DNA of 51,111 nucleotides, from assembly GCA_016840065.1 (NCBI GenBank), contig JAEOTB010000115.1, positions 1 through 51,111 of the forward strand. Direction: 5' to 3'. This document shows positions 17,549 to 30,095 of the stretch, one piece after another. Source of the stretch: Candidatus Hermodarchaeota archaeon. Its GTDB lineage: Archaea; Asgardarchaeota; Hermodarchaeia; Hermodarchaeales; Hermodarchaeaceae. Within the stretch, counting starts at the first letter, position 1. Every line of letters begins with the position of its first letter. The position numbers and the translations under genes are program-made. The notes under the pieces were generated by a model that made no database searches, was not told where the DNA came from, and worked only from the letters and a program-made list of their open reading frames with translations.

Positions 17549-18529
17549 GTGAAGCGTCTTCCTACACTAGTTCTTTATCATCCAGCGATGGCTGAAGAGG
17601 GCTACCCTGTCCTAGCTGGTCGTGTACAGCAAGCTTTTGACTACTTGGAAGAGACCGGGACTTTGCAGGCGTCTCAGGTGATTCATGAGGAGGCGCGGCA
17701 GGTAGACAGTTCACTACTGAACCGAGTGCATACTGAACGCCATATAGCAGGCGTTGGGCGTACCAGTTATGATTTTGCGTCTCGACTCTCAGCAGGTGCA
17801 GCGGTTAGGGCGGGTGAAGCGGTGTGGACTGGTGAAGCGGCTAACGCTTTTGTGTTCACAGGTTGTGCTGGACACCATGCCAGCCGCGACTCAGCCTGGG
17901 GCTTCTGCTACTACAATAACACAGCGTTGCTGGTTCGCCATCTCCAAAAGGCTCATGGCGTTGAGCGTTTCTTCGTTGTAGACACCGATCCACACACGGG
18001 TGACGGCACTCGAGATACTCTTGGCGAGGATTTGGGTGTGTACCATCTTAATTTCTATGCGGCATTCGGGGAGGGTGAAGAGCCCGAGTCAACTCGCCAA
18101 GTTGATGTTCCCTTTCCAAGCAATTGTGGTGACGCGTCGTTTGTTGAGGCGTTACGTAGGTTAGCAACACCCCTCGCAAAAGAGAGTAGAGCTCAGATGA
18201 TTCTTTGGAACATGGGACATGACGCCCATGCCATCGATTATGGTGGCTTCCAGCTTTCGCTTCACGCTTTCCCAGAAATGACAAAACTTCTTCTAGCATT
18301 GGCCGAGGAAGTGTGTCAAGGGCGTTTTATTGTGCTGCTTTCTGGTGGGTCTGAGGAGTACGTCGCCCGTCACACTATCTCGAGTATTATTCGACACCTA
18401 GCAGGGCTTTCCCCCCTCCCTGCTGATACTGGTGAGGAGCCAGCACCTGACACTCCTGAAACTGAGCGGACTGCCCGGAAGCTTGTTGAGAAAATCATCA
18501 CAGAATTAGGTTTCGACACCGAAGAATGA
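17549..18529 (+). CDS. Histone deacetylase family (Zn-dependent deacylase)
   Basis: GHHA....GFCYYNN, DTDPHTGDGT and GHDAH..D motifs. Confidence 0.9.
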   Translation: MKRLPTLVLYHPAMAEEGYPVLAGRVQQAFDYLEETGTLQASQVIHEEARQVDSSLLNRVHTERHIAGVGRTSYDFASRLSAGAAVRAGEAVWTGEAANAFVFTGCAGHHASRDSAWGFCYYNNTALLVRHLQKAHGVERFFVVDTDPHTGDGTRDTLGEDLGVYHLNFYAAFGEGEEPESTRQVDVPFPSNCGDASFVEALRRLATPLAKESRAQMILWNMGHDAHAIDYGGFQLSLHAFPEMTKLLLALAEEVCQGRFIVLLSGGSEEYVARHTISSIIRHLAGLSPLPADTGEEPAPDTPETERTARKLVEKIITELGFDTEE

Positions 18530-18532
18530 AGG

Positions 18533-18994
18533 CTAGGATGTGGTGCCGACTTTCTCCCAGGCTTGGAATTTTCCTCGGGCGCGCTGAACAAGGACGAGTC
18601 CATATCGTTTCCAGATTTCTTCACGAGTTAAGGATTCCTCCTCAGAGGGCGTACTGCTTGAAGGTGGAGTGTGTTCCTCGGGTCTGATGGACTGGCTATA
18701 GAATATAGAATCAATTAGGTTACCAACGAGCCCTTGCTGGTACTGATCCTTGACGAAGATGAGTATCTGTTCCGTGGGAACATCCACTGGCTGCAGAGGG
18801 TGACGAGTAACGCCCTGGCTGAATGAGGGGCAGACGCCACTCATCGTTTCTTTGACAATCTCGATACAGTTTGGGTCGATGAAGAACTGGCATGTCAGGC
18901 ATTGTCGCCATCCTGCGTGGATAGCTTCTTCAAGGTTGATTTTCTTACCACAAGCAACGCAAGATATGCCGACGGTGCTCAAGTCTATTTTCAT
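18533..18994 (-). CDS. RING-variant zinc-finger protein (Nse1-RING-like), last gene of SMC operon
   Basis: C12-x2-C15-x16-C32-x2-C35-x4-D40-x2-C43-x11-C55-P-x8-H65. ATGA overlap with the KITE gene. Confidence 0.6.
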   Translation of the reverse strand: MKIDLSTVGISCVACGKKINLEEAIHAGWRQCLTCQFFIDPNCIEIVKETMSGVCPSFSQGVTRHPLQPVDVPTEQILIFVKDQYQQGLVGNLIDSIFYSQSIRPEEHTPPSSSTPSEEESLTREEIWKRYGLVLVQRARGKFQAWEKVGTTS

Positions 18995-19650
18995 CGGCTC
19001 TCACCGTCTTCTGAACCCTTTGATGAAGTTGTGCCTACTAGGTAAGTGGCGGCTGTACTGGCGATAGCCTTTCGTCGTTCTGCGTCAAACTCGAGTTCAG
19101 TCCTGGGCCCGTAGGCTATTCGGTTTGTGCTACGTTCAATGTAACCAAGATCCGCGAGGCGCCGGAGTATTCTATCCAGTTGATAACGAGAAAGGCGACC
19201 ACGCGTTACCAATGCTGCATCTAGTTCCTTCGGAGTTGTCTTTCTTGCCCGTCTCCGAGCTCCAGCATTTTCTATAGCCGCGATAATCACTCCTAGCACA
19301 GCATATTCGGGATCGGTTAGTTCGCTAGGAACTCCGTATAGTGTGCGCAGACAGTAACGAGTCTCCCGACCAAGCCGATATTCTACGAGTTCCAACCCTA
19401 GTGGAGTGATATGCTGCCGAAGTAGGCTGAAGAGCTGATTGAGCCCATCACGGTTCGTGTGCAGGGCTTCTAGTAAATCCTGTTGCTTAACACCGATGTT
19501 GAGCTGACTTTCACCGTCACGCCAACGGGCGGTGAGGGCTGCGAAGAGCTGACCAAGTAGATGCTGTTGAGCGCGTTCCTCACTTTCATCGACACCCCGG
19601 TCGGCAGTATCAACTGAGGACTCGTCTCTAGGAGTAGGTTCTTCTGTCAC
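18991..19650 (-). CDS. KITE (tandem winged-helix) protein, Nse1/Nse3-MAGE-like
   Basis: LRQHITPLGLELVE, LGVIIAAIE, LDRILRRLADLGYI and YGPRTELEF (cf. MAGE/Nse3 WGPR..E). Lies in the SMC operon. Confidence 0.75.
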   Translation of the reverse strand: MTEEPTPRDESSVDTADRGVDESEERAQQHLLGQLFAALTARWRDGESQLNIGVKQQDLLEALHTNRDGLNQLFSLLRQHITPLGLELVEYRLGRETRYCLRTLYGVPSELTDPEYAVLGVIIAAIENAGARRRARKTTPKELDAALVTRGRLSRYQLDRILRRLADLGYIERSTNRIAYGPRTELEFDAERRKAIASTAATYLVGTTSSKGSEDGESR

Positions 19651-19655
19651 TTCTA

Positions 19656-20510
19656 CTATTGAACCTCCTGACGGCGCCTAGACTCTACTGCCACAGCAGC
19701 AAAAGAGACTTCATCTGTTTTCCGCTTTGAGGGGCGAAAGGCGATGATGGATTTTCCAAGGAAGGAGGCGGATATTCCTCCATCCCTTATCATCTGACTA
19801 AGAATATCAAGTTCCCAATTCGTTAACAGCTCTGCCAGCTCGTCTATCGAATACCGCTTACCCTCAAGCTGGGCTGTGAGTTTTTCCCGGAGACCTTTCA
19901 GCTCTTCTTGGAGGAGCTGGTCGTAGGCTACCTTATGCCGAGCTAGATCCGCTCGGTCCTCAGGAGTCGACACTACACTGCTTGCCAAGGGGTTATCCCC
20001 GTCAGGCATTGTGAATTCAGGTGCAATGATTTCTCGACTCGGTAAGAATACCAAGGGCGTTGCCCGGCGTTTAACTTCTGTGGCGAAGCGGCTAATCCAG
20101 ACCTCTGGTGTTACATCAATCGCTGCAAGGACCGCGTCTCTCTGTAATTGCATCTTGGCCATATTGAGATAGCAGCGTCCGTCCAGCACATGTTCCCAAG
20201 GTGTTTCGACGAAACGATAGGCTTCAGATACTTCTTCTCGGTCACGCTCTGACTCTCTAATCTCGAAAACCTCTTGGTCCTTTAGAGCCTTCTCATACTT
20301 CTTCGATAGATTCCAAAGAGCCATCACGATACCCTTTACAACTTGCTCTTGTTTATCTGGGCTAAGCGGACCTGTTCTGTTTTGAAGCCTGTAAGATGAT
20401 AAGCTCTCAAGGGGGCAGCTTCTAGAGCAGGGCTCGTCTGCGCCGCATCTTCGGCGACACATCTCCTCCAAACTTTCCTCTGATTTCTTGGAGAGTTTCT
20501 TGTTGCGCAT
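19656..20510 (-). CDS. Putative kleisin (Nse4/ScpA-like)
   Basis: Lies between SMC and KITE, with a TAATG overlap with the SMC stop. N-terminal helices, a linker and a C-terminal winged-helix-like segment (YSIDELAELL...ILSQMIRDGGISAS). Assignment rests mainly on context. Confidence 0.55.
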   Translation of the reverse strand: MRNKKLSKKSEESLEEMCRRRCGADEPCSRSCPLESLSSYRLQNRTGPLSPDKQEQVVKGIVMALWNLSKKYEKALKDQEVFEIRESERDREEVSEAYRFVETPWEHVLDGRCYLNMAKMQLQRDAVLAAIDVTPEVWISRFATEVKRRATPLVFLPSREIIAPEFTMPDGDNPLASSVVSTPEDRADLARHKVAYDQLLQEELKGLREKLTAQLEGKRYSIDELAELLTNWELDILSQMIRDGGISASFLGKSIIAFRPSKRKTDEVSFAAVAVESRRRQEVQ

Positions 20511-23434
20511 TAGCGCTCCACTTCCCCTTTGATAAGCACGATATGGTTCATACTAGCTGGAATTTCTAAACCAACTGTCGAGGGCGCCATGAGAATGAAT
20601 TGTGGGTCTACGGTTAGATTCATTCGACTTAGCTCTAATGCCCGCTGAACAATACTGAGTACAGCAGCACGACTTGCCTCATCGAGACGCTGAGTGAACT
20701 CGTCGATGACATGTAGAGGGCTTTTTGCAAGCGTATGGAGTGCAAGGATGAATGTTTGTGTACCGAGAATCCTCTCTCCACCACTCATGTTTTCATAGGT
20801 TCGCCAAGCATCTTCCTTATTGATAGCTATTTGGATGAACAGCTCAGCACGACTTGGCTCATTCGGGTATCTTACCGTTAGGCGTACCTGTTTTAGGAAA
20901 TGGCTGAGGAGTTTGTTCATTCGCTGGTTTAGACGCTCTAGGGTTTCTTCTAGACGGCGACGCCATTCGATTATTCTTCTTTGGACATCCCCCATCAGAT
21001 TGTCAAGGTGGCGTTTGCGTTCTGCAAGATATTCTTGGAGTTGGCGTACTAATTTTTCCTGCTTTTCATAAGCCTGTCTGTCCTCTGCGGTGGCACGAAT
21101 CGTTTCAATCATCGCTTGAACTTGGATTTGTTCTTCTCGCACTTGGTTAGGAAGCCTTACCATGTCGGGTCTTGGACCTTGGGCTTCAGCTGCCTGTTGC
21201 TGTTCTTTAACTTGATTGCTTAGGTGGTTGTGTTCCTCCTCTCTGTCTCGAAGGTCTCGTGTGAGTCGTTCAATCTCGGATTCGAGTCTGTATCTTCGGT
21301 TATCCAGATTTCTTAGTTGTTCCTCAACTCTGTTGAGACGTGGGATGACCTTTGATAGTGAGTTGTCACACCGGCGATATTCCTCATCTATCCCATCAAG
21401 ACTACTACCCAATTCTGCAATTTGTTGTTCTACATCATCAATGTGCCGCTGCAAATCTGCTACCAAGATATCTCGGTCATCACCGGTTGAGCGGGCTGTT
21501 TCCGGGTGACGAAGCTCTTGAAGACGAATCTTGATCTGACTAATGTCTGAATTAACCTTCATACGATCTAAGCCGAGTACTTGTTCCTGACGCCGTAGCG
21601 CCGCTAACTTGCTTATCACACTACTTGTATCATCACCGAGACGAATTTCACGGAGCTCCCTACCCAGAGAGACTGTCACAGGCGGAGGTGGTCTGGTGAA
21701 CGCACCGATACGCAGGTAGTGACTAGCGCCATCGCTTGTGATGATATTTCCACGTAATCTTTGAGCTGCATCCGCGAGCAGATTAGGGTCTGATGCTTCG
21801 GCAACAGCGGTGTTGATAACGCGGTTTAGAAACATAACCACTCTAGGCTCTCCCTGAATGAGGTCGGCTGCCCAGCCAATGACGGGGGGAGAGATTGTGG
21901 GTCTGCGGCGGGGTTCAGACTCTTCTGAGTGGGCTCTAGCAACAAGTAGGTTTGGTTTCCGGTCTGACCAAAGACGGTCAAAAATCTCCTTAGCGCTACT
22001 AAACGCTTCACGATTGAGAGCAAGGAAAGCGTAAGCATAACGTCCTAGAGCTAGTTTCACGGCGAGTTCATATCTCTCCTGTCCTCTCTTCATCCTTATT
22101 AGAGAGAATAGGGGGCCAAGCACCTTTCGTCCAAGAGCAGCTTCGTCAAGTCCATGGCGAAATTGCTTGCAAGCGCGTAAAATCTCCGCTTCACGGCGTG
22201 AATGCCTCTGGGGCTCAACCGTAAGTTCCTCTTCTGTTGAAGCGATTTGCTGCCTAAGTGAAAGCTGCCTTTTATCCAGTTTGTCTCGCTCAGCGATGAG
22301 TTCTGCTAGTTCGGATCGGAGTGTGTCCTCCTGAAGGGAGGGTGTTTGGGTAATATCTGGTTGAGATGAGCGATAACGGGTTATCCTTGAAATAGCTTCC
22401 TTGAGTTCACTGTCGAGGGCACTTCTCTTGCCGCGCGCTTCCATTTGCTGGTCCCGAAGCACAGTCATGGTGTCTCGCAGTTTCGTCCGCTGAGAGAACA
22501 GGTCACGACGCTTCTCACTGAGTTCTTCCCGACGAGTGTCTAGCTTCTCCATCTTGGACCGCTCAGTTTCCAGACCAGTCTTCGTTTCATTAATGGAGGT
22601 TTCGAGCTGACTGATGAGCTGCTCACGGTGTACGACCTCAGCCCAAGCAGCCTCAACTGTCAATGCTTGAAACCGTTCTTGTAACTTCTGCTTCTGCTCA
22701 TAGGCCTCGAAAGCAGTTTTGAGAATCTGAAGACGTTGTTCCTCTCCACGGATTCGCTGCTGAAGTGGCGTAACATTGGATCGTGCCTGGACCACAAGCA
22801 ACCGCGCCTCTTCTAATTTCTCCATCCAATCATTAAGCCCTGTCTCGTTCAAGAGGGTCTCAAACTTCCTACGAGGTGTCTGGGATGCGAATTGGTCCAG
22901 TGTTTCCGCCTCTGTAACTGCAAGAGGTGAATCACCAAACACTCCCGCTGCCTGGAAGAGTTGACGAATATCCTGTCGACTTATTCGGCGCCCCTTGATT
23001 GTTCGCTGATTATTAACCCAGAGAGAAATCGTGTTGCTGGGGAGGATGCGCAGGCGGATTGATACCGTGTCTTGGTCGAGGAGCTTATTCATCTCCTTCT
23101 CGGGACTTCGCAAGAGACGACGTTCAGCGATGACTGGGTTGTTGAGTTCTAGAATAACCTCAGCGTACTTGTCGAAGGGACCGATGAATTTGATGTTACG
23201 TTGACGCTGAACACGTTTTGATTCTAAACCAATGATTAGTAGCAACGCATCAAGAATCAGGGTTTTACCACTGCCATTAGACCCTGTTATCAGAGTAATT
23301 GGTGAACGGTCTAGATGAACCGTTGTATCTCGATGAATGACAAAATTGACCAGCCTAATACTTCGAAAAACCATGCGAGTGGCGGGTGGGGATTCAGCTG
23401 CCGGAGAGGACGCCACCGCTTCTTTACTGGTCAT
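20510..23434 (-). CDS. SMC-family ATPase, Smc5/6-like
   Basis: IRLVNFVIH, Walker A GSNGSGKT, two long coiled coils, hinge VLGPLFSLI...AVKLALG, signature MSGGER, Walker B SPLHVIDEFTQRLD and QFILMAP (no His, as in Smc5/6). Confidence 0.88.
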   Translation of the reverse strand: MTSKEAVASSPAAESPPATRMVFRSIRLVNFVIHRDTTVHLDRSPITLITGSNGSGKTLILDALLLIIGLESKRVQRQRNIKFIGPFDKYAEVILELNNPVIAERRLLRSPEKEMNKLLDQDTVSIRLRILPSNTISLWVNNQRTIKGRRISRQDIRQLFQAAGVFGDSPLAVTEAETLDQFASQTPRRKFETLLNETGLNDWMEKLEEARLLVVQARSNVTPLQQRIRGEEQRLQILKTAFEAYEQKQKLQERFQALTVEAAWAEVVHREQLISQLETSINETKTGLETERSKMEKLDTRREELSEKRRDLFSQRTKLRDTMTVLRDQQMEARGKRSALDSELKEAISRITRYRSSQPDITQTPSLQEDTLRSELAELIAERDKLDKRQLSLRQQIASTEEELTVEPQRHSRREAEILRACKQFRHGLDEAALGRKVLGPLFSLIRMKRGQERYELAVKLALGRYAYAFLALNREAFSSAKEIFDRLWSDRKPNLLVARAHSEESEPRRRPTISPPVIGWAADLIQGEPRVVMFLNRVINTAVAEASDPNLLADAAQRLRGNIITSDGASHYLRIGAFTRPPPPVTVSLGRELREIRLGDDTSSVISKLAALRRQEQVLGLDRMKVNSDISQIKIRLQELRHPETARSTGDDRDILVADLQRHIDDVEQQIAELGSSLDGIDEEYRRCDNSLSKVIPRLNRVEEQLRNLDNRRYRLESEIERLTRDLRDREEEHNHLSNQVKEQQQAAEAQGPRPDMVRLPNQVREEQIQVQAMIETIRATAEDRQAYEKQEKLVRQLQEYLAERKRHLDNLMGDVQRRIIEWRRRLEETLERLNQRMNKLLSHFLKQVRLTVRYPNEPSRAELFIQIAINKEDAWRTYENMSGGERILGTQTFILALHTLAKSPLHVIDEFTQRLDEASRAAVLSIVQRALELSRMNLTVDPQFILMAPSTVGLEIPASMNHIVLIKGEVER

Positions 23435-23750: not shown

Positions 23751-24074
23751 ATGACAAGCGATGAAGGCTTTTGGAGATCAATCATAGTTGACGTAGAACC
23801 CCGTCAGAAGGAGTTCCGCATCGGCATAGACGAAGACACCAGCATCGGAGAAGTCATCCGAACCCTAGTCACCCAAGCCCGTGATGAGGGTATTAGTGTG
23901 GATGAGTGGGCAAAGGCGAAAATCGGTGACCAACGAGCAGAGTTTGTGCTCATCCGGAAAGCACCTGAACCCACACGGCTCAGCCCCACCGCCACCTTTG
24001 GTGACTTGGAACCCAAAGTTGTCGATGATGAATTCTTCCTCATGGACGTGATCCCAGAAGTTGGAATTAAATAG
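23751..24074 (+). CDS. Ubiquitin-like (beta-grasp) protein with C-terminal VG-IK
   Basis: Beta-beta-alpha pattern (SIIVDV, EFRIGI, TSIGEVIRTL), FVLIRK, LSPTATFGDL (cf. Ub LEDGRTLSDY) and a terminal strand ending EVG-IK. Directly upstream of the E2. Confidence 0.75.
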   Translation: MTSDEGFWRSIIVDVEPRQKEFRIGIDEDTSIGEVIRTLVTQARDEGISVDEWAKAKIGDQRAEFVLIRKAPEPTRLSPTATFGDLEPKVVDDEFFLMDVIPEVGIK

Positions 24075-24104: not shown

Positions 24105-24854
24105 ATGACTCGAGCAGTTTTTTCTACGGAATTATTCAACGCGCGTGTGGAAACACAGATACAAACCTTCTTCGACACTATGGCCAATCTCTACGGGCAG
24201 CGAGGTTGGTCACCTGAACAGCCTAGGCGCCGAGATTTGAAGTGGGAAACCGAAGACTTCACAGTAGAGATTAATGGTCGTTACCGGGATGGTGCCTACA
24301 AGCAGTTTCACTTCACTATGCGGAACCTCCCAGGATACTTCCGTTGCCCTGGATCTCTCACCGACCCGAATGCTATCCGATGGGAACACCGCTTTTCCTT
24401 CGACTTACCCCGTGAGTATCCACAGAATATTGGGTCTATCCGTCCTTCAGCTGAAACCCCCCTTTATCATCCACGGCTATCCGCAGGCGGGAAAGGACTT
24501 GCCTGCTACTCGGTTAGAGGAGAGCTAGACCGCATCCTTGAAGACCTACCCTTCTTTGTATTACTCAAACCTGATCGTGTTGAGCCGCCATCCCGTTTTT
24601 CCTCTGACCATGGGTTGAATACCCAGGCTATGCATTGGTACGAGCGAAACGCCGATGGGATTGTGGCAACCCTCGAACGTCTTTGGAGAGAGCGCCATAA
24701 AGATCCAGACACATCAGAAGGTGAAAGGCGTAGTGGGCGCGTACAAATCATTACCTCTCCACGGGAAGCTCAACCCGGTCGTCGGAGCCCACGTATCCTT
24801 GATGAAAAGGAGCATCAAACTGGGCGAATCAGAATTTTAGATGATGAAGATTAG
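24105..24854 (+). CDS. E2/UBC-fold ubiquitin-conjugating-like enzyme
   Basis: FSFDLPREYP, TPLYHPRL (HPN variant), GLAC with Cys134, and LNTQAMHWY. Disordered C-tail. Confidence 0.8.
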   Translation: MTRAVFSTELFNARVETQIQTFFDTMANLYGQRGWSPEQPRRRDLKWETEDFTVEINGRYRDGAYKQFHFTMRNLPGYFRCPGSLTDPNAIRWEHRFSFDLPREYPQNIGSIRPSAETPLYHPRLSAGGKGLACYSVRGELDRILEDLPFFVLLKPDRVEPPSRFSSDHGLNTQAMHWYERNADGIVATLERLWRERHKDPDTSEGERRSGRVQIITSPREAQPGRRSPRILDEKEHQTGRIRILDDED

Positions 24855-24870: not shown

Positions 24871-25143
24871 ATGCCAAGTCGGTCTCCAAAGGACGAAGAA
24901 GAAGCTGAAGAAACAAGAACTGAACAGCCAGCGTCTGAACAAGATAGTGCTGAAGATACAGAGGAAGAGCAACTCGTCTTAGAGGAGGAAGACACGTCAC
25001 AGGCCCATCGTAGTCGGATTGTCATATTGGGAGAGAGGGACATCCCCTTCGAAGAGGAGCGACCTCCGAACCTCTTGCCAAACTTTCAAGTGAAGGTTCA
25101 TCGAGTGAGCAGACCAGAGAAGCCAAGGGAGGTTGGACTTTGA
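24871..25143 (+). CDS. Small acidic disordered protein
   Basis: Glu-rich ORF filling the gap between E2 and RING, with a TTGA overlap with the next gene. Alternative start at 24841. Confidence 0.6.
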   Translation: MPSRSPKDEEEAEETRTEQPASEQDSAEDTEEEQLVLEEEDTSQAHRSRIVILGERDIPFEEERPPNLLPNFQVKVHRVSRPEKPREVGL

Positions 25144-25535
25144 GTGTCCATGGTGCAGCACAGGTTAAGTGCGCGATTTGCGATGACGCCGTTTCACTAG
25201 AAAATGCACGGTTGGACTGGTGGATTTGCACCAGTTGCGGAAGCTATTTGTGTCCGCGATGCCACACACTGTTTACTAGGAGTGGTGATGAACTCTGCCC
25301 TGGAACTATAGTTCGAGGAGCTGAGCCGCACCAACCCCATCTCACGCGATTCCTTTCGCCTCGACCTAATCCAGAACCGCCAGCACAACATGGTAGCCCC
25401 TCTGTTCGTATCTTGGAAGATGTTCCTCGTCGACCAAGCCCAAAGCCTGGAGGCAGGGTAATCTTTCTTGATGACAGAGAGCCTGGAGAAGAGGAGCGAG
25501 AGACTAAAACACAAGATGATGAAGATGCCGGCTAA
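25140..25535 (+). CDS. RING-variant zinc-finger protein (candidate E3)
   Basis: C11-x2-C14-x15-C30-x2-C33-x4-C38-x2-C41-x11-C53-P-x9-H64, followed by a Pro-rich/acidic tail. Confidence 0.68.
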   Translation: MSVHGAAQVKCAICDDAVSLENARLDWWICTSCGSYLCPRCHTLFTRSGDELCPGTIVRGAEPHQPHLTRFLSPRPNPEPPAQHGSPSVRILEDVPRRPSPKPGGRVIFLDDREPGEEERETKTQDDEDAG

Positions 25536-27120
25536 CTTACCTGTCCAAATGGAGATTTCCGCCCCTTCCCGAGCCAAGGGTTTACCTCTTGTGAAGCCGA
25601 AAGAAAGTGTAAAAATTGTCCTAACGCGCTCCTTTACTGGTCAAACAGGCGAGTATGCTAATGGTGTTATATTCGTTCGCGACCCATTCGGAACCAATAT
25701 CGCTAGGATACCTTTCAAATTCGGTGAATTTACTAAAGGGACTTTTACTGTTCAGATAAAAGAGGAACTTCTTTCAGGAATCTACACGGCTGCAGTAGCT
25801 TTCGAAGGGGAAAAGGACCTCACCAGCGCTAGAGGAGGATCTGGCGAAGCGCTATTTGGCTGCTTCCGAGTAGAAAAAGGCCTCCCACCAATCATCTCGC
25901 ACAAGGTTACCTACAAGGCTAAAATAACGAATGAGGGAGGCAGGCAGGATGACTACGGGAAAGGCACTTCGGGTGGTATCGACCTCTTCGATGTATCGGT
26001 GTTTCTTGCTACACCAATTTCGATTCCTTTTCGCCAAGAAGTTATCAAACTTAGACCTAACCCTTCAACAGGCGCAGAATCCAATGACTTGGTCGGTAAT
26101 AATTGGGTTCGTTATAGTTTGAAACATTTAGCCTTTGGTAAGAGCTTTACATGTGGCTATACTGCTCTAGTCCGGAATCACTCTGTAAGATATGCGCTTC
26201 CTCCAGTGAGTAATGCTGCAATCCCTCATGAGATCAGGGATTACACTAAGCCAGAGAAGCATATCGAGTCTGATCACCGTCGCATAAAGGAGATGGCTAA
26301 CCAATTAGCAAAGACCTATCGAAATCATAGCTCCTTTGTTGCTGCTGCCATGCGAACTGTCTTTAGAACCTTGAAATATAAGCCTCAACGTTCAGAGCTG
26401 GGAGCCGCTTATGCAATAGCGAATAAGATAGGCGATTGCACGGAATATGCCGCGCTTACCGCTGCCCTTTGTCGGGCAAATGGTATTCCAGCAAGACTTC
26501 AAGCGGGTTTCGGATTTGGTGGAGCCACGTGGGAACGCCACGCGTGGGCTGAGGTTTGGCTCCAAGGCTTCTGGGTCCCTGTAGACTCCACTTGGTATGG
26601 TCGTGACGGAACTCTGGGCATAACAAGCCGTCACATCCCTTTGATTGTTGGAAATTGGATGAGCAGCCGTATCCGCCAAGAATTCAACATTCGCTGGAAG
26701 ACCAAAGGAGGGAGAGCTAGTCCGCCAACTTTAGATGCGAAATGGAAGGTTGAGCGACTGAGTTCTACCCGCGCCGCACCTGGACCTCGCCTGAGGCCTT
26801 CACCTATTCGGCTTAGGGTCAAAGCACCAGATGCTGTACCTCGTGGCACTCTTCTGAAACTTGGCATCAAGATCAGCCCGGTCCCAAAGGTTTCCGCAGC
26901 TCTGACTATGATGGCGATATCTGCTACAATTTCCGATAGCGAGATGGACCGCATCGTTGCGCTGAAACCGATTCCAATAAGCATTTCTAAGCCAATGGAT
27001 ACAACCATGGAGTTACAGATGCCCCGTTGCATTCCCAAAGCAAAGCTCTCCCTTAGAGTTTGGCTCGACGGAAAACCCACAGAAGCAACGTGGGAAAAAG
27101 CTATTGGATTAATCCAATAG
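25516..27120 (+). CDS. Transglutaminase-like (Cys-His-Asp) protein with flanking beta-sandwich domains
   Basis: GDCTEYA.L..ALCRANGIPARL, HAWAEVW and WVPVDST. No obvious signal peptide. Confidence 0.9.
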   Translation: MMKMPANLPVQMEISAPSRAKGLPLVKPKESVKIVLTRSFTGQTGEYANGVIFVRDPFGTNIARIPFKFGEFTKGTFTVQIKEELLSGIYTAAVAFEGEKDLTSARGGSGEALFGCFRVEKGLPPIISHKVTYKAKITNEGGRQDDYGKGTSGGIDLFDVSVFLATPISIPFRQEVIKLRPNPSTGAESNDLVGNNWVRYSLKHLAFGKSFTCGYTALVRNHSVRYALPPVSNAAIPHEIRDYTKPEKHIESDHRRIKEMANQLAKTYRNHSSFVAAAMRTVFRTLKYKPQRSELGAAYAIANKIGDCTEYAALTAALCRANGIPARLQAGFGFGGATWERHAWAEVWLQGFWVPVDSTWYGRDGTLGITSRHIPLIVGNWMSSRIRQEFNIRWKTKGGRASPPTLDAKWKVERLSSTRAAPGPRLRPSPIRLRVKAPDAVPRGTLLKLGIKISPVPKVSAALTMMAISATISDSEMDRIVALKPIPISISKPMDTTMELQMPRCIPKAKLSLRVWLDGKPTEATWEKAIGLIQ

Positions 27121-27126
27121 GGAGTA

Positions 27127-27987
27127 TTACTTACGTTTGCTTCGACAAAACGCTTCGCTGCACCGTGGATTCCGCATTATAGGCCCACTAGTAGATTGAT
27201 GGTGGCGAAGATCGTACTTGATGAATCGCCCAAATGCAGGTTCAAGTCCTTCTCGCCAGTGATTGGTCTGCCTCCACTCCTCTAATCCAACAACAACCTT
27301 GGTTGCCTCCCAAGCCATTATCGCGCCAACAACTGAGGTTATGAAGCTTATCATGGGGAACTTGGGTAATGTGTCGACAAAGAAAGGGTCACAACTAGCG
27401 CGCACCTGCTCTGCCACAAGTCTATCAACGAATTCTTTACTCCAAGAACAAACCATACAAGCAGTGTCTGGAGGTGTGAGGACCTCCACAGAAACGAAGT
27501 CTAGACCCATTGCTCCATTGATGACTGGGCGGGGTGGCTGAAGACTGAGGTTCTTGGCATTAAGCAGATACCTGGCGTAGTGGTTATCGACACCCACCAG
27601 AACAAGGTCAACATCCCACACCTTCTCTTTCGCTTCCTGAATGGGTACAGGATAGGGTTCTACAATAGTATCTGTTGCTAGTTCCCCGAGTCGTTCTGCA
27701 ACCGCATCTACCTTAAACTTCACATCATGGTCCCCAGGCCGGAAGAAAACGCACCGGTTTAGGTTTGAAGCAGCTACTTTATCTGGGTCGACGAGTAATA
27801 TTTTCCCGATGCCTAGCAGACCGAGATTCTTGCAGACCTCATTCCCCACGGCGCCAGCCCCGACCATGAGCACAGTTGCATTTTGTATTCTCACCAGGTT
27901 ATCGGTGCCTAGCCAGCGGCGTGTTCTGTCATGACGGTCACGTTCGAAGAATCCTAGGTCTACGCGTGTCGGAGGTTCCTCAGGCAC
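27127..27987 (-). CDS. E1-like (ThiF/UBA) activating enzyme
   Basis: GAGAVGNEVCKNL, SNLNR, GVDN..AR, Zn site CMVC...C..C, and candidate catalytic Cys199 (RASCD). Confidence 0.9.
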   Translation of the reverse strand: MPEEPPTRVDLGFFERDRHDRTRRWLGTDNLVRIQNATVLMVGAGAVGNEVCKNLGLLGIGKILLVDPDKVAASNLNRCVFFRPGDHDVKFKVDAVAERLGELATDTIVEPYPVPIQEAKEKVWDVDLVLVGVDNHYARYLLNAKNLSLQPPRPVINGAMGLDFVSVEVLTPPDTACMVCSWSKEFVDRLVAEQVRASCDPFFVDTLPKFPMISFITSVVGAIMAWEATKVVVGLEEWRQTNHWREGLEPAFGRFIKYDLRHHQSTSGPIMRNPRCSEAFCRSKRK

Positions 27988-27990
27988 GGT

Positions 27991-28629
27991 CTATACACCC
28001 CCTTCCAAGGAGCCCTCGAGCTCGTCAGATGGTACAGTGCCAACGGGGACCTTGGGGAGATATGTGCACCATTCTACGCGTTCTAGCTGTAATGCATCAC
28101 TTTCGTTTGAGCGGCGCAGCATGTAGACCTTGAAGAAACGGCTGAGAGGATCTATGAGGAAGAAAACATTACCTTCCGCACAAAAAGGGGTTTTAAAAAA
28201 TGTGTTAAGGTCGGTGGAGGAGAACTGAGGATTGCCGCCGAATGGATGAGAATGCCATAGACCAATGACTCGAGGCGTATGTGGATTTGACCCGTACCTA
28301 TCATGTAAGGCTAACCTGTATTCCAGGATTCCCTCCGGGGTGAACCTGGCATAGGTCATGCTCGATTCCACTTGTCCTGTTGCCCAATCTGTCACCCTGA
28401 CATATTTTGTGCCTTGCCATTGACGACGAAAACCGAGAATCACCCCAAGTGCCTCATGCGGGGGTTTGCGTTGCGCCTCTCGTAGACAATAGTCGAAGAT
28501 GTCCTGACAAGTCCGTTCGTAAATATAGACTGGGTAGACCGTGTCCTCTGATAGCGCATCCTTTTCTTTTGTCTGTGTTTCTGGAGGTGGTTGAGATGGG
28601 GCTCGGTCTGGCAAATTCCTCTTCTCCAT
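27991..28629 (-). CDS. JAB/MPN+ (JAMM) metallopeptidase
   Basis: E59 (HEALG) and WHSHP-x-SSTD (H126, H128, S137, D140). Confidence 0.9.
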   Translation of the reverse strand: MEKRNLPDRAPSQPPPETQTKEKDALSEDTVYPVYIYERTCQDIFDYCLREAQRKPPHEALGVILGFRRQWQGTKYVRVTDWATGQVESSMTYARFTPEGILEYRLALHDRYGSNPHTPRVIGLWHSHPFGGNPQFSSTDLNTFFKTPFCAEGNVFFLIDPLSRFFKVYMLRRSNESDALQLERVEWCTYLPKVPVGTVPSDELEGSLEGGV

Positions 28630-30095
28630 CAGTTCTCTTTGTTCCCTAATCTAGTGCTCCAAGGGTAACGTTGCATTATGTTATCTATTAGCCGGTTCAC
28701 TTTCTCCTCTTCTGATGTTTCAGAATAAGCCAAGAATATTACTTGACCGCCACGGCTTCGCTTCATCTTCTGATATATCGTCTTGGTGGTGTTCACTACA
28801 TCGCAGATTATTAGGAGGTCGGTTTCTGGGAGGTCGAGGTCGCGTTCGCCGACAGGAGAGAGGATGATTGCCGCTGGGGGTTGGGCTGCTTTGAACTCCG
28901 CTAGTACTGCTTGTTTATCTCTGGTTCGTCCAGTAAGGGTAAAGGACTGTACTCCAGCCCTGCTGAGGAGACGGTTGACCTCAGAAACAACATGGAGATA
29001 TGAGCTGATGATAACGGTTTTACCACTCATATTTACGAGCTGGCAGACCTTGAGGGCCTTTGGTGTGACCTTTGGCCATTCACTCTGAATTCGCTCGACA
29101 TCAATCTGAGGTGCGAGAGCTGGGTGGTGAAGAAACCTACGGAAGCTGCTAACCGCCATGCCGTAGAGATACTTACGAATCATTAGCAGACCCGAATAGC
29201 GTTGAGCCAGCTCTTCAGAGATTGGCAGCTCGTCAAGGACAAGGTGGAGAAGACGGACTGACTCGGGTAAAGCGTCAGATTCGATGTCTCTTTCCTCTCT
29301 CACTATCTGATATATTTCATCCCTAGTTGACTTGATTAAGGCGTCCAATACAAGGGAAATCGCCTTGATGAGGTTGTCCTGAACCGCTACGACATTGATT
29401 ACTGTTGGCTCAATGTAGTCCTCCACATCGGAGCCGCTCAGCTCATCCATGGAGATTACTTCCGCCCTAGGGATGAACTGACTAAGCGTTTTCAGCTCCT
29501 CTCGTATCTGAAGTTGAGCATTATCAAGGACCACATGATCATCACGGAGCGTACCCGACATCCCTATTATCCAGCGATCCTTGAAGAACTCAAGTAGATA
29601 GCTCCAAGGTTGTACTAGAACGTTCTGCCGCCCCACACGACGAAGAATAGTGTCAACCTCGTTTATTACAAGGGCATCAAATTGCTGGGGCGTGAATTCT
29701 CCTCTTTTCAGTATGTTAGTGAGTACCCTCGCAGTACACAATACCACCCTCGATTTTTCCAGCATCCACCGCCGTTGCCGACCCTGCACTCGTTGGGTCA
29801 TTGCCCCCAGCCCTGAAACCCCTCCATACTCCTTCTCTAAATATTGAGCTGTTTCTTGCAGCGAGGAAGTGGAATTCACTGTCAAGATGAAGCGCGTTTC
29901 AGGAAACAGCTCCGAGACGAGTTTGTAGGTAAGAACACGTTTCCCTAACCCGCAATCCAATTCAATGAGTATGTTCTTGTCTCGATTTTCCTTGATGCGC
30001 CGAAGAATGTATTCTTGGTATCCCCGTAAGTCTAGTTTGCTAGTTCCTGGTGAAGCAGGTTTTGAGGGAGACCTTCGGGGTTGTGGCATCATCAT
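28629..30095 (-). CDS. SF2 Hef/FANCM-like helicase with degenerate ATPase motifs
   Basis: LRGYQ, DCGLGKR, INEVD, GMSGT, SPVGERDLDLPETDLLI and YQKMKRSR. One-base overlap with the JAB start. Confidence 0.75.
   Translation of the reverse strand: MMMPQPRRSPSKPASPGTSKLDLRGYQEYILRRIKENRDKNILIELDCGLGKRVLTYKLVSELFPETRFILTVNSTSSLQETAQYLEKEYGGVSGLGAMTQRVQGRQRRWMLEKSRVVLCTARVLTNILKRGEFTPQQFDALVINEVDTILRRVGRQNVLVQPWSYLLEFFKDRWIIGMSGTLRDDHVVLDNAQLQIREELKTLSQFIPRAEVISMDELSGSDVEDYIEPTVINVVAVQDNLIKAISLVLDALIKSTRDEIYQIVREERDIESDALPESVRLLHLVLDELPISEELAQRYSGLLMIRKYLYGMAVSSFRRFLHHPALAPQIDVERIQSEWPKVTPKALKVCQLVNMSGKTVIISSYLHVVSEVNRLLSRAGVQSFTLTGRTRDKQAVLAEFKAAQPPAAIILSPVGERDLDLPETDLLIICDVVNTTKTIYQKMKRSRGGQVIFLAYSETSEEEKVNRLIDNIMQRYPWSTRLGNKEN

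Follow-up and report, generated by a model that had tools for sequence, protein, structure and literature searches.

The window analysed here, a stretch of 51,111 nucleotides (contig JAEOTB010000115.1, C122 in our survey) from a Candidatus Hermodarchaeota metagenome-assembled genome (MAG) of the Asgard archaea, 2.59 Mb in size and 84% complete, carries at 18533-23434 four genes for an SMC ATPase, a protein in the position of a kleisin, a KITE subunit and a small protein with a RING-like zinc finger. On balance, the four genes are read by us as probably encoding a second, Smc5/6-related SMC complex, the RING-like fourth subunit of which would act as an E3-like adaptor. This reading is built on the gene order and its conservation, the fold of the KITE, the metal-ligand pattern and the RING-like model of the finger, and the link of the operon to neighbouring genes for ubiquitin-like (Ubl), E2-like, E1 and JAB proteins.

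Among the eukaryotic SMC complexes, Smc5/6 is the least understood, and no other includes ligase subunits for ubiquitin and SUMO. In current reconstructions, its SMC, kleisin and kite are traced to Asgard and TACK archaea and the RING is treated as a later eukaryotic addition. The conserved RING-like fourth gene, and the physical joining of the operon to Ubl, E1, E2-like and JAB genes in two lineages, are the new elements described here.

The operon and its SMC and KITE subunits

A preliminary description of this DNA had put forward a four-gene operon in which a KITE gene overlaps a separate RING-variant gene. All four open reading frames were confirmed, on the same strand, and the ATGA overlap was confirmed by direct reading of the junction (...AGC CGA TGA / ATG AAA ATA). 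The features of the operon are as follows.

20510..23434, minus strand: SMC ATPase of the putative second (SMC5/6-like) complex, 974 amino acids (aa)
23261..23284, minus strand: Walker A of the SMC, GSNGSGKT, residues 51-58; G51, N53, G54, G56 and K57 are invariant in the family alignment A6
20681..20785, minus strand: signature SGGE (884-887) and Walker B/D-loop HVIDEFTQRLD (908-918) of the SMC, from alignment A6
19656..20510, minus strand: kleisin-position protein, 284 aa, assigned by position only
18991..19650, minus strand: KITE subunit, 219 aa; a disordered acidic N-terminus, then winged-helix domains A and B (WH-A and WH-B)
18991..18994, minus strand: ATGA, in which the stop codon of the kite gene overlaps the start codon of the RING gene
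18533..18994, minus strand: fourth subunit, 153 aa; N-terminal two-zinc RING-like finger and conserved C-terminal domain
18797..18970, minus strand: RING-like finger, residues 9-66; candidate ligands C12, C15, C32, C35, D40, C43, C55 and H65
18545..18787, minus strand: C-terminal domain of the fourth subunit, motif REExW..G.VLV.R..GKF..WE

The genes are co-directional and tightly packed head to tail, with a 1-nt overlap between the SMC and kleisin-position genes, a 5-nt gap between the latter and the kite gene, and the 4-nt overlap between kite and finger.

The first gene product shows both head halves, Walker A, signature, Walker B and hinge of the SMC superfamily. Pfam SMC_N matches residues 24-932 (3.4e-20), SMC_hinge scores 22.5 bits, at the cut-off, and the motif strings noted earlier (HVIDEFTQRLD, DPQFILMAP and VLGP) are all present. 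In A6, an alignment and profile of 11 family members from different lineages, S884, G886, E887, I910, D911, E912, Q915, L917 and D918 are invariant. The 20 codons at the start of the gene (window 23375-23434) are possibly untranslated; several database homologues start at a methionine that matches M21, corresponding to 954 aa. The same genome encodes a canonical SMC of 1188 aa on contig C61, followed by ScpA (Pfam 6e-9) and ScpB (9e-30). As that protein has its own ScpA and ScpB genes, the window SMC belongs to a second complex.

Close relatives of the window SMC (55-87% identity) were found in Asgard MAGs only, and the sole eukaryotic protein obtained in a word-indexed search was a fungal Smc6. 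Comparison of the A6 profile with solved structures gave Smc6 as the top match (134.7 bits for human SMC6 and ~119 bits for yeast Smc6), followed by a truncated Pyrococcus Smc construct (98.6 bits), Smc4 (75 bits), SMC3 (68 bits), SMC5 (66 bits) and Smc2 (57 bits), with Rad50 lower. No MukB or JetC chain was present among the best 60 of the 82 PDB matches. Maximum-likelihood trees were calculated for 40 rows (LG+C20 PMSF) and for 25 rows (LG+G4), rooted on the Rad50-like protein of the genome and holding no rows of eukaryotic Smc1-5, MukB, JetC or ClsN. The two trees agree in topology. One clade unites the canonical SMC with thaumarchaeal SMCs and P0041, a 1189-aa relative (SH-type approximate likelihood-ratio test, SH-aLRT, 99); the other unites the window SMC family with other Asgard SMC paralogues and fungal Smc6 (SH-aLRT 94 and 96), its internal order being undecided. 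The earlier designation as an Smc5/6-type SMC stands as far as a non-canonical second SMC with Smc6 as top profile score is concerned, but a rival topology uniting the window family with the canonical SMCs costs 14 log-likelihood units and survives the approximately unbiased (AU) test (p-AU 0.074; 25 rows, LG+G4). In sequence, therefore, the affinity of the SMC leans towards Smc5/6, in agreement with the published phylogenies of the second archaeal SMC.

Two side observations concern this family. A 1070-aa member (L056, JBFWQT010000391.1; 427 bits) was found under the label Planctomycetota on a 7-kb contig that ends before the downstream genes, and is probably mis-binned. Moreover, separate 223-aa frames matching the N-terminal SMC head only (residues 1-224, 195-308 bits) are present in three Asgard genomes (G015:C1:1354659-1355279, G017:C6 and G042:C75). 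In G015 the frame lies ~2 kb upstream of the full-length SMC gene; such frames may result from a duplication of the head or from the splitting of a gene.

The second gene lies between SMC and kite in every locus examined, and its alignment reveals a conserved N-terminal helix-like motif and a C-terminal motif. In a published analysis, the in-between genes of Asgard SMC5/6-related clusters are kleisins. The kleisin proposed for this place in the preliminary description is thus retained by position only, no search having given sequence support (see below); hhalign of the family with the genome's own ScpA gave no match either.

The third gene is a KITE, as had been proposed. The AlphaFold2 (AF2) model, obtained from a 41-sequence alignment, has a pLDDT value (prediction of the local distance difference test) of 89.8 and a predicted TM score (pTM) of 0.80 and consists of two winged-helix units. 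Foldseek returned Nse1 7dg2_A (7e-5) and NSE1 5hvq_C first, followed by ScpB, MAGE/Nse3, JetB and MukE. With VIA, Nse1 was again on top (Z 10.8 over 162 residues), with lower values for ScpB (Z 9.5), yeast-complex chains judged to be Nse1 from their length (Z 8.7-9.6) and JetB (8.4). The two-domain alignments extend over 140-163 residues with Z 8.3-10.8; MAGE chains align on WH-B only. A confident tandem winged-helix model and top Foldseek matches that are all KITE proteins establish the fold, and the structural preference for Nse1 is about one Z unit. The string YGPRTELEF, earlier given as the end of the protein, is present, but it is located 35 residues before the actual end.

By sequence, the KITE is far less readily recognized. 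Single-sequence searches of Pfam, NCBIfam and PDB gave nothing significant, the profile reached only sub-threshold MarR-type proteins in PDB, and hhalign of the kite family with the genome's own ScpB gave no match. Pfam SMC_Nse1 matched one of 11 kites, below threshold (E 0.0021), so that the family does not belong to Nse1 by sequence. A profile search of 1.84 billion representatives retrieved 61 proteins, all of at most 243 aa save one 1808-aa repeat protein, and none of Nse1 or Nse3 length.

The finger of the fourth protein and its phyletic spread

The fourth protein of the window reads C12-x2-C15-x16-C32-x2-C35-x4-D40-x2-C43-x11-C55-P...H65. Across families the consensus becomes C-x2-C-x16-C-x2-C-x4-(C/D)-x2-C-x(9-11)-C-(P)-x(7-9)-H, in which M1, C12, W29, C32, C35, C43, C55 and H65 are invariant (six of these eight being Cys or His) and C15 almost so. 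At position 40, the family of the window genome has Asp and all others have Cys. This conservation is seen in proteins of 60-90% identity within the nearest lineages and of 20-40% (mean ~31%) across families. Of the eight candidate ligands, numbers one to seven line up with a C4HC3 finger, while the last pair is C-x(7-9)-H and not a C-x2-C knuckle. The Nse1-type RING spacing suggested earlier accordingly holds for the Cys pairs; x4-D-x2-C stands for x4-H-x2-C, and C55-P is not followed by a Cys at +3.

The AF2 model of the fourth protein is confident for residues 5-75 only (pLDDT 71-86). In an exhaustive VIA comparison, about 45 of the best 50 chains were RING or U-box domains, aligned over 50-65 residues with model residues 1-77 (Z 3.8-5.5). 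They include Prp19, TRAF6, RNF4, Ring1b/Bmi1, APC11, CHIP, Slx1 and Rad18, as well as the SP-RING of Nse2 from the Smc5/6 holocomplex (7qcd_C, Z 4.5) and the SP-RING 2yu4 (Z 4.3). The predicted helix 41-50 begins at ligand positions 5 and 6 (D40 and C43), where the central helix of RING domains begins as well. The structural case for a RING-like finger lies in the uniformity of the match list, the Z values of the modelled domain being modest. The likeness to the Nse1 RING in particular, which the preliminary description had anticipated, was not borne out: the Nse1 RING 2ct0 (Z 3.8, rank 48) is not favoured over other RINGs, and its Pfam family (zf-RING-like) does not appear in the top 25, ranked by how often the fingers matched them, of 45 families.

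Other searches with the finger returned little. As single sequence, it had no significant match in Pfam, NCBIfam or PDB. Foldseek of the model against PDB gave no match at E <= 0.001, the best PDB match of the profile was RNF4 (E 0.067, not significant), and hhalign found no match between the finger and kite families. The matches of an Atlas fold search were small viral zinc proteins, IFT zinc fingers, zf-RING_2, Rad5 and TRIM71 at TM scores of 0.3-0.6, which is weakly consistent with a RING but does not decide the matter. The finger also picked up one canonical C4HC3 RING protein of another Asgard genome (E 8e-4 per genome). Taken together, the fourth protein resembles a RING variant in its RING/U-box-like model and in the seven ligands in register, but it matches no curated RING family above threshold and its last ligand is displaced. 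The C-terminal domain is conserved across families as strongly as the finger; its pLDDT is below 50 in the AF2 model, which was made from a shallow first alignment. Forms of 101-103 aa lacking the first 50 finger residues were also encountered in metagenome protein sets. In the case examined (P0069) the short form is a gene-calling artefact, since the sequence upstream codes for the finger in the same frame but has no canonical start codon.

The spread of the gene was followed in 400 Asgard species genomes, the families of which are labelled f1, f2 and so on. The finger gene is present in 66 of the 400, with 17/18 genomes in f1, 28/31 in f7, 3/3 in f8, 2/2 in f11 and 10/12 in f12, and it also occurs in f2, f6 and f29. 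It is nearly absent from f31 and from f20 (2/135), where the one case examined was a canonical RING protein elsewhere in the genome. The window-SMC family has the same distribution. In about 50 genomes, matches to both genes are listed on one contig; the finger gene is then found on the strand of the SMC gene, 1.3-1.7 kb (2.6 kb in one case) beyond the 3' end of the latter. The order SMC, kleisin, kite, finger was observed in all loci examined, from families f1, f2, f6, f7, f8 and f12 and from two NCBI 'Heimdallarchaeota' MAGs, with the finger directly after the kite in every one. The four-gene arrangement is not due to chance. The NCBI labels of the close homologues conflict among themselves (Promethearchaeota, Hodarchaeota, Thorarchaeota and Heimdallarchaeota).

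A 4-nt overlap of two frames could also be the trace of a fused Nse1-like gene into which assembly or sequencing introduced a frameshift. This explanation can practically be dismissed. The genes are separate in all 66 matched genomes and in independent metagenome contigs, and the open frame of the finger starts two codons before its ATG (a 155-aa frame for a 153-aa protein). In relatives, the junction is mostly a 4-nt overlap and otherwise a 13-nt overlap or a gap of 0, 20, 23 or 38 nt. As the junction types vary by lineage and no open frame exceeds 203 aa, the split of KITE and RING into separate genes, already assumed in the preliminary description, is real. The fused homologues, which that description had recommended looking for, were found neither in the 66 genomic matches nor among the 61 kite profile matches.

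These results bear on the most far-reaching proposal made for this locus, namely that eukaryotic Nse1 descends directly from this unfused pair of KITE and RING genes. The kite is followed by a protein with the finger at its N-terminus, and a read-through product of this order would be WH-A/WH-B/RING, as in Nse1. The first seven ligands fit the C4HC3 set, which is that of Nse1 (PMC8750328), the best structural matches of the kite are Nse1 chains, and the operon is present in MAGs labelled Heimdallarchaeota by NCBI. We nevertheless hold the proposal to be doubtful. Besides the missing fused form, no protein as long as Nse1 or Nse3 was retrieved with the kite profile, the structural matches show no preference for the Nse1 RING, and the eighth ligand is different. 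A published kite phylogeny could not resolve the archaeal kites with respect to Nse1 and Nse3. In addition, distant Asgard SMC paralogue operons that are SMC5/6-like (L099, L101 and L105) have a kite but no Cys-rich gene, so that a lineage-specific gain of the finger gene fits the distribution equally well. Split-Nse1 ancestry, which competes with independent recruitment, is therefore possible but unproven: a kite followed by a separate RING-like gene is what the earlier proposal had right, whereas no fusion was found, the finger shows no particular similarity to the Nse1 RING, and its gene occurs in only part of the Asgard archaea. In two of the distant operons, L099 (G249:C11) and L101 (G134:C1), the order is AAA+ ATPase, SMC, a multi-winged-helix protein of 289-322 aa, a protein of 289-313 aa and a kite of 176-190 aa; the kite of L099 is matched by the kite profile and that of L101 is not.

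The distribution also bears on a reading of the SMC operon and its Ubl, E1, E2 and JAB neighbours (see below) as a defence island against foreign DNA, of the Wadjet, Lamassu or Bil kind. Eukaryotic Smc5/6 restricts episomal DNA. In PADLOC, the SMC partially matched LmuB (75 bits) and JetC (43 bits), and the E1 and JAB proteins matched CBASS/Bil-type models; a role of Smc5/6 in antiviral immunity is stated in PMC10586767. Nevertheless, the other three operon proteins match nothing in PADLOC, neither JetA, JetB or JetD nor a Lamassu partner was matched, and the operon holds no nuclease. Furthermore, the genes are near-universal within f1, f7, f8 and f12 despite the incompleteness of MAGs, and the topology of the SMC tree tracks the genome families, as is typical of core genes passed on vertically and not of a patchy defence island. 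Given this near-universal vertical distribution and the lack of Wadjet or Lamassu partners, the defence-island reading is unlikely.

The neighbouring candidate genes for ubiquitin-like conjugation

Upstream of the SMC gene, five plus-strand genes encode a beta-grasp candidate, an E2-like protein, an acidic protein, a second finger (P0076) and a transglutaminase-core protein. Genes for ThiF, Prok-JAB and helicase-like proteins are convergent on this cluster.

23751..24074, plus strand: beta-grasp or Ubl candidate, first gene of the divergent cluster; weak YukD match, E 0.047
24105..24854, plus strand: divergent E2-like protein, 249 aa; motif F.F.LP.EYP...YHPR...C seen by eye
25140..25535, plus strand: paralogous RING-like finger P0076, 131 aa; same ligand pattern, without the C-terminal domain
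25468..27120, plus strand: transglutaminase-core protein, after the paralogous finger; Pfam Transglut_core 3.3e-20
27127..28629, minus strand: E1-like (ThiF) and JAB peptidase genes, the E1 gene being 27127-27987; ThiF 1.1e-35, Prok-JAB 4.2e-10

The E2-like protein was recognized by an Atlas feature search, in which 27 of 30 matches were clusters named ubiquitin-conjugating enzyme E2 (score 0.93). Its f12 orthologue has a weak UQ_con match (E 0.008), and the window copy has no Pfam match. P0076 is matched by the finger profile A2 (6.6e-22) and weakly by the Pfam RING family zf-UDP (7.9e-5), and has no counterpart of the C-terminal domain of the fourth subunit. The helicase-like gene (28629-30095, minus strand; ResIII/Helicase_C, with a weak XPB/Rad25 C-terminal match) heads the JAB-E1 string; no homologue of it was seen beside JAB-E1 in the f12 arrangement. 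On the other side of the operon, the RING gene faces a convergent gene of the histone deacetylase family (17549-18529, plus strand; Pfam 2e-46). This neighbour also stands behind the operon in genus g2 and in a JGI metagenome contig, in the latter with an acetyltransferase gene after it.

The proximity of the two gene sets is not confined to the window. Homologues of the Ubl candidate adjoin the SMC operon both in genus g2 and in f12, and the E2-like gene is restricted to families with the RING operon (f1 18/18, f2, f11 and f12 10/12). In f1, the E2-like gene is always the divergent neighbour of the SMC gene. In f12, SMC, kleisin, kite, RING, JAB, E1, Ubl and E2-like genes follow one another on one strand, with the finger-transglutaminase pair a few kb further on. 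That two different arrangements retain the same genes is good evidence for a functional link between the operon and the Ubl genes. Canonical UQ_con E2 genes also occur, elsewhere in the window genome and in the three f7 genomes searched (G015, G016 and G033). In the window genome there are two of them (117 and 58 bits) at C69:43618-45848, ~37 kb from a Mre11/Rad50-like pair (C69:3158-6691), and hence a conventional E2 set exists besides the divergent E2-like gene. Homologues of the transglutaminase-core protein were observed 6-9 kb from the RING gene in two f7 loci without the E2-like gene (L109 in G016 and L110 in G033).

The most economical reading of this neighbourhood is that the fourth subunit and a dedicated Ubl conjugation system work together in some lineages, either one serving the other. 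The paralogue inside the Ubl/E2-like/E1/JAB cluster and the direct adjacency in f12 suggest an E3 role of the finger. In the assembly that we propose, the SMC would presumably be a homodimer bridged by the second-gene product, kleisin by position, on which a single KITE, presumably a homodimer as well, would be seated. The fourth protein, presumably coupled to the KITE in translation, may be a stoichiometric accessory subunit. Its C-terminal domain, which the free-standing paralogue lacks, would most likely dock it on the KITE/kleisin module. The finger would then work as an E3-like adaptor bringing a charged E2, either the neighbouring E2-like protein or a canonical E2, to the complex, and the small Ubl would be attached to subunits of the complex or to chromatin-bound targets, the JAB peptidase reversing the modification. 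Nse1, with its RING, and Nse2, with its SP-RING, have broadly this role in Smc5/6.

Several observations weigh against the adaptor role and the assembly around it. No finger matched a curated Pfam or PDB RING family by sequence above threshold. As eighth ligand there is a His, 8-10 residues beyond C55, in place of the Cys at +3 of a true RING knuckle, the fifth is Asp in the window genome, and the VIA Z values of 3.8-5.5 fall in the range that the tool terms common. Weak IBR matches in 7 of 13 finger members leave room for a sequential instead of a cross-brace zinc topology. The kleisin-position protein has no match in Pfam, NCBIfam, PDB (single-sequence and profile searches), Atlas or PADLOC. 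Finally, the neighbouring E2-like gene was not detected in f6, f7 (0/31) and f8, though these families keep the RING gene, and coupling to that particular Ubl system is therefore not universal.

Some of these points also suit a fourth protein that is a structural or a DNA- or protein-binding zinc module with no ligase role, next to Ubl genes that are there by co-regulation or have the complex as their target. A finger outside all RING families by sequence and with a non-canonical last knuckle would be in keeping with such a module, and the RING of Nse1 is itself structural in the Nse1/3/4 trimer (PMC8750328). Since f7 in particular retains the finger gene with no E2-like gene beside it, as do f6 and f8, this structural role is a serious rival; we take it to be possible, although not probable. 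A paralogue with the same finger inside the Ubl/E2-like cluster speaks against it, and so do the JAB, E1, Ubl and E2-like genes that follow the RING gene directly and on the same strand in f12. Moreover, the f7 genomes G015, G016 and G033 carry canonical UQ_con E2 genes the products of which could serve the finger. The adaptor role on a second, Smc5/6-related complex is kept as the preferred reading.

The constant pairing of the kite gene with a separate RING-like gene hints that the link of SMC5/6 to protein tagging is older than the eukaryotes. In its strongest form, a RING-type ligase and a dedicated Ubl system would already have been mounted on an Asgard SMC5/6-type complex and Nse1 would have arisen by kite-RING fusion, a scenario that we advance only tentatively and regard as rather improbable. 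If it were true, SMC5/6-linked ubiquitylation would be an archaeal inheritance and not a eukaryotic innovation. The origin of the partnership between SMC5/6 and protein modification has in any case become testable with a small set of expressible archaeal proteins, which also offer a simpler, homodimeric model for the mounting of a RING subunit on a kite-kleisin module.

Comparison with known SMC and ubiquitin systems

The canonical Smc-ScpA-ScpB complex shares with the proposed assembly a homodimeric SMC, a kleisin and a tandem winged-helix KITE, and ScpB is among the top structural matches of the kite. There is no profile similarity, however, the window SMC is shorter by ~200 residues, and ScpAB has no fourth, zinc-finger subunit. 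Wadjet (JetABCD) and MksBEF are likewise operons of an SMC-like ATPase, a kleisin and a KITE, and JetB and MukE appear among the structural matches of the kite, but in PADLOC the JetC matches are weak (<=43 bits) and JetA, JetB and JetD are unmatched. With Lamassu the likeness is limited to the ATPase (LmuB, 75 bits), no partner having been found by PADLOC.

Caldiarchaeum subterraneum and Asgard archaea reportedly have eukaryote-like ubiquitin operons with a small RING finger protein. The neighbouring cluster resembles these in bringing together a small Ubl, a ThiF E1, an E2-type enzyme, a RING-type finger and a JAB/Rpn11-like peptidase. It differs from them in that the Ubl and E2-like proteins fall below every Pfam threshold and in that one of the two fingers is encoded in the SMC operon. 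A separate RING-type subunit on an SMC complex is also known in Nse2/Mms21, and SP-RINGs are among the structural matches of the finger. Nse2 binds the Smc5 arm by an N-terminal helical domain and carries a one-zinc SP-RING at its C-terminus, whereas the finger described here occupies the N-terminus and comprises two sites, and its gene follows that of the kite.

The likeness to the Nse1-Nse3-Nse4 module comprises an SMC with Smc6-like affinity in sequence, a kleisin-position gene, a Nse1-like KITE and a KITE-associated two-zinc RING-like finger, together with the link to ubiquitin-like conjugation machinery that is shared with Smc5/6. The variant RING (vRING) of Nse1 is a C4HC3 domain that adjoins WH-B, ubiquitinates the kleisin Nse4 and stabilises the Nse1/3/4 trimer, and its full activity requires Nse3 and Nse4 (PMC8750328). 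In the archaeal operon, KITE and finger are two proteins instead of one polypeptide, and a single SMC and a single KITE take the place of the pairs Smc5/Smc6 and Nse1/Nse3. The finger has the ligand set C4-(C/D)-C2-H and not C4HC3, with Cys or Asp for His as the fifth ligand and a distal His for the Cys of C-P-x-C as the eighth, and the finger protein carries an extra C-terminal domain. No counterparts of Nse2, Nse5 or Nse6 were identified.

SMC5/6-related clusters of SMC, kleisin and kite have already been published for TACK and Asgard archaea (van Hooff et al., bioRxiv 10.1101/2024.01.07.573240; Yoshinaga and Inagaki, PMC8665677), and the table of the preprint lists Hermodarchaeia and Thorarchaeia genomes with SMC5/6-related SMCs and a Nse1/3-related kite (bioRxiv 10.1101/2024.01.07.573240). 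In the same preprint, archaeal kites are said to lack the RING of Nse1, which is described as an innovation of eukaryotes (bioRxiv 10.1101/2024.01.07.573240). In Heimdallarchaeota LC_3, the published SMC, kleisin and kite genes are MDVS01000027.1_69 to _67, with gene _66 as their neighbour. No paper mentioning a RING gene in these operons or their linkage to Ubl genes was found in full-text literature searches, and for this reason the RING-like fourth gene and the Ubl linkage are regarded as new additions to a known operon. The operon of the window shares with the published clusters the order SMC, kleisin, kite and the presence beside a canonical Smc-ScpA-ScpB set. It differs from these three-gene clusters by a conserved fourth gene, which supplies a RING-like finger in trans, and by its linkage to Ubl, E1, E2-like and JAB genes.

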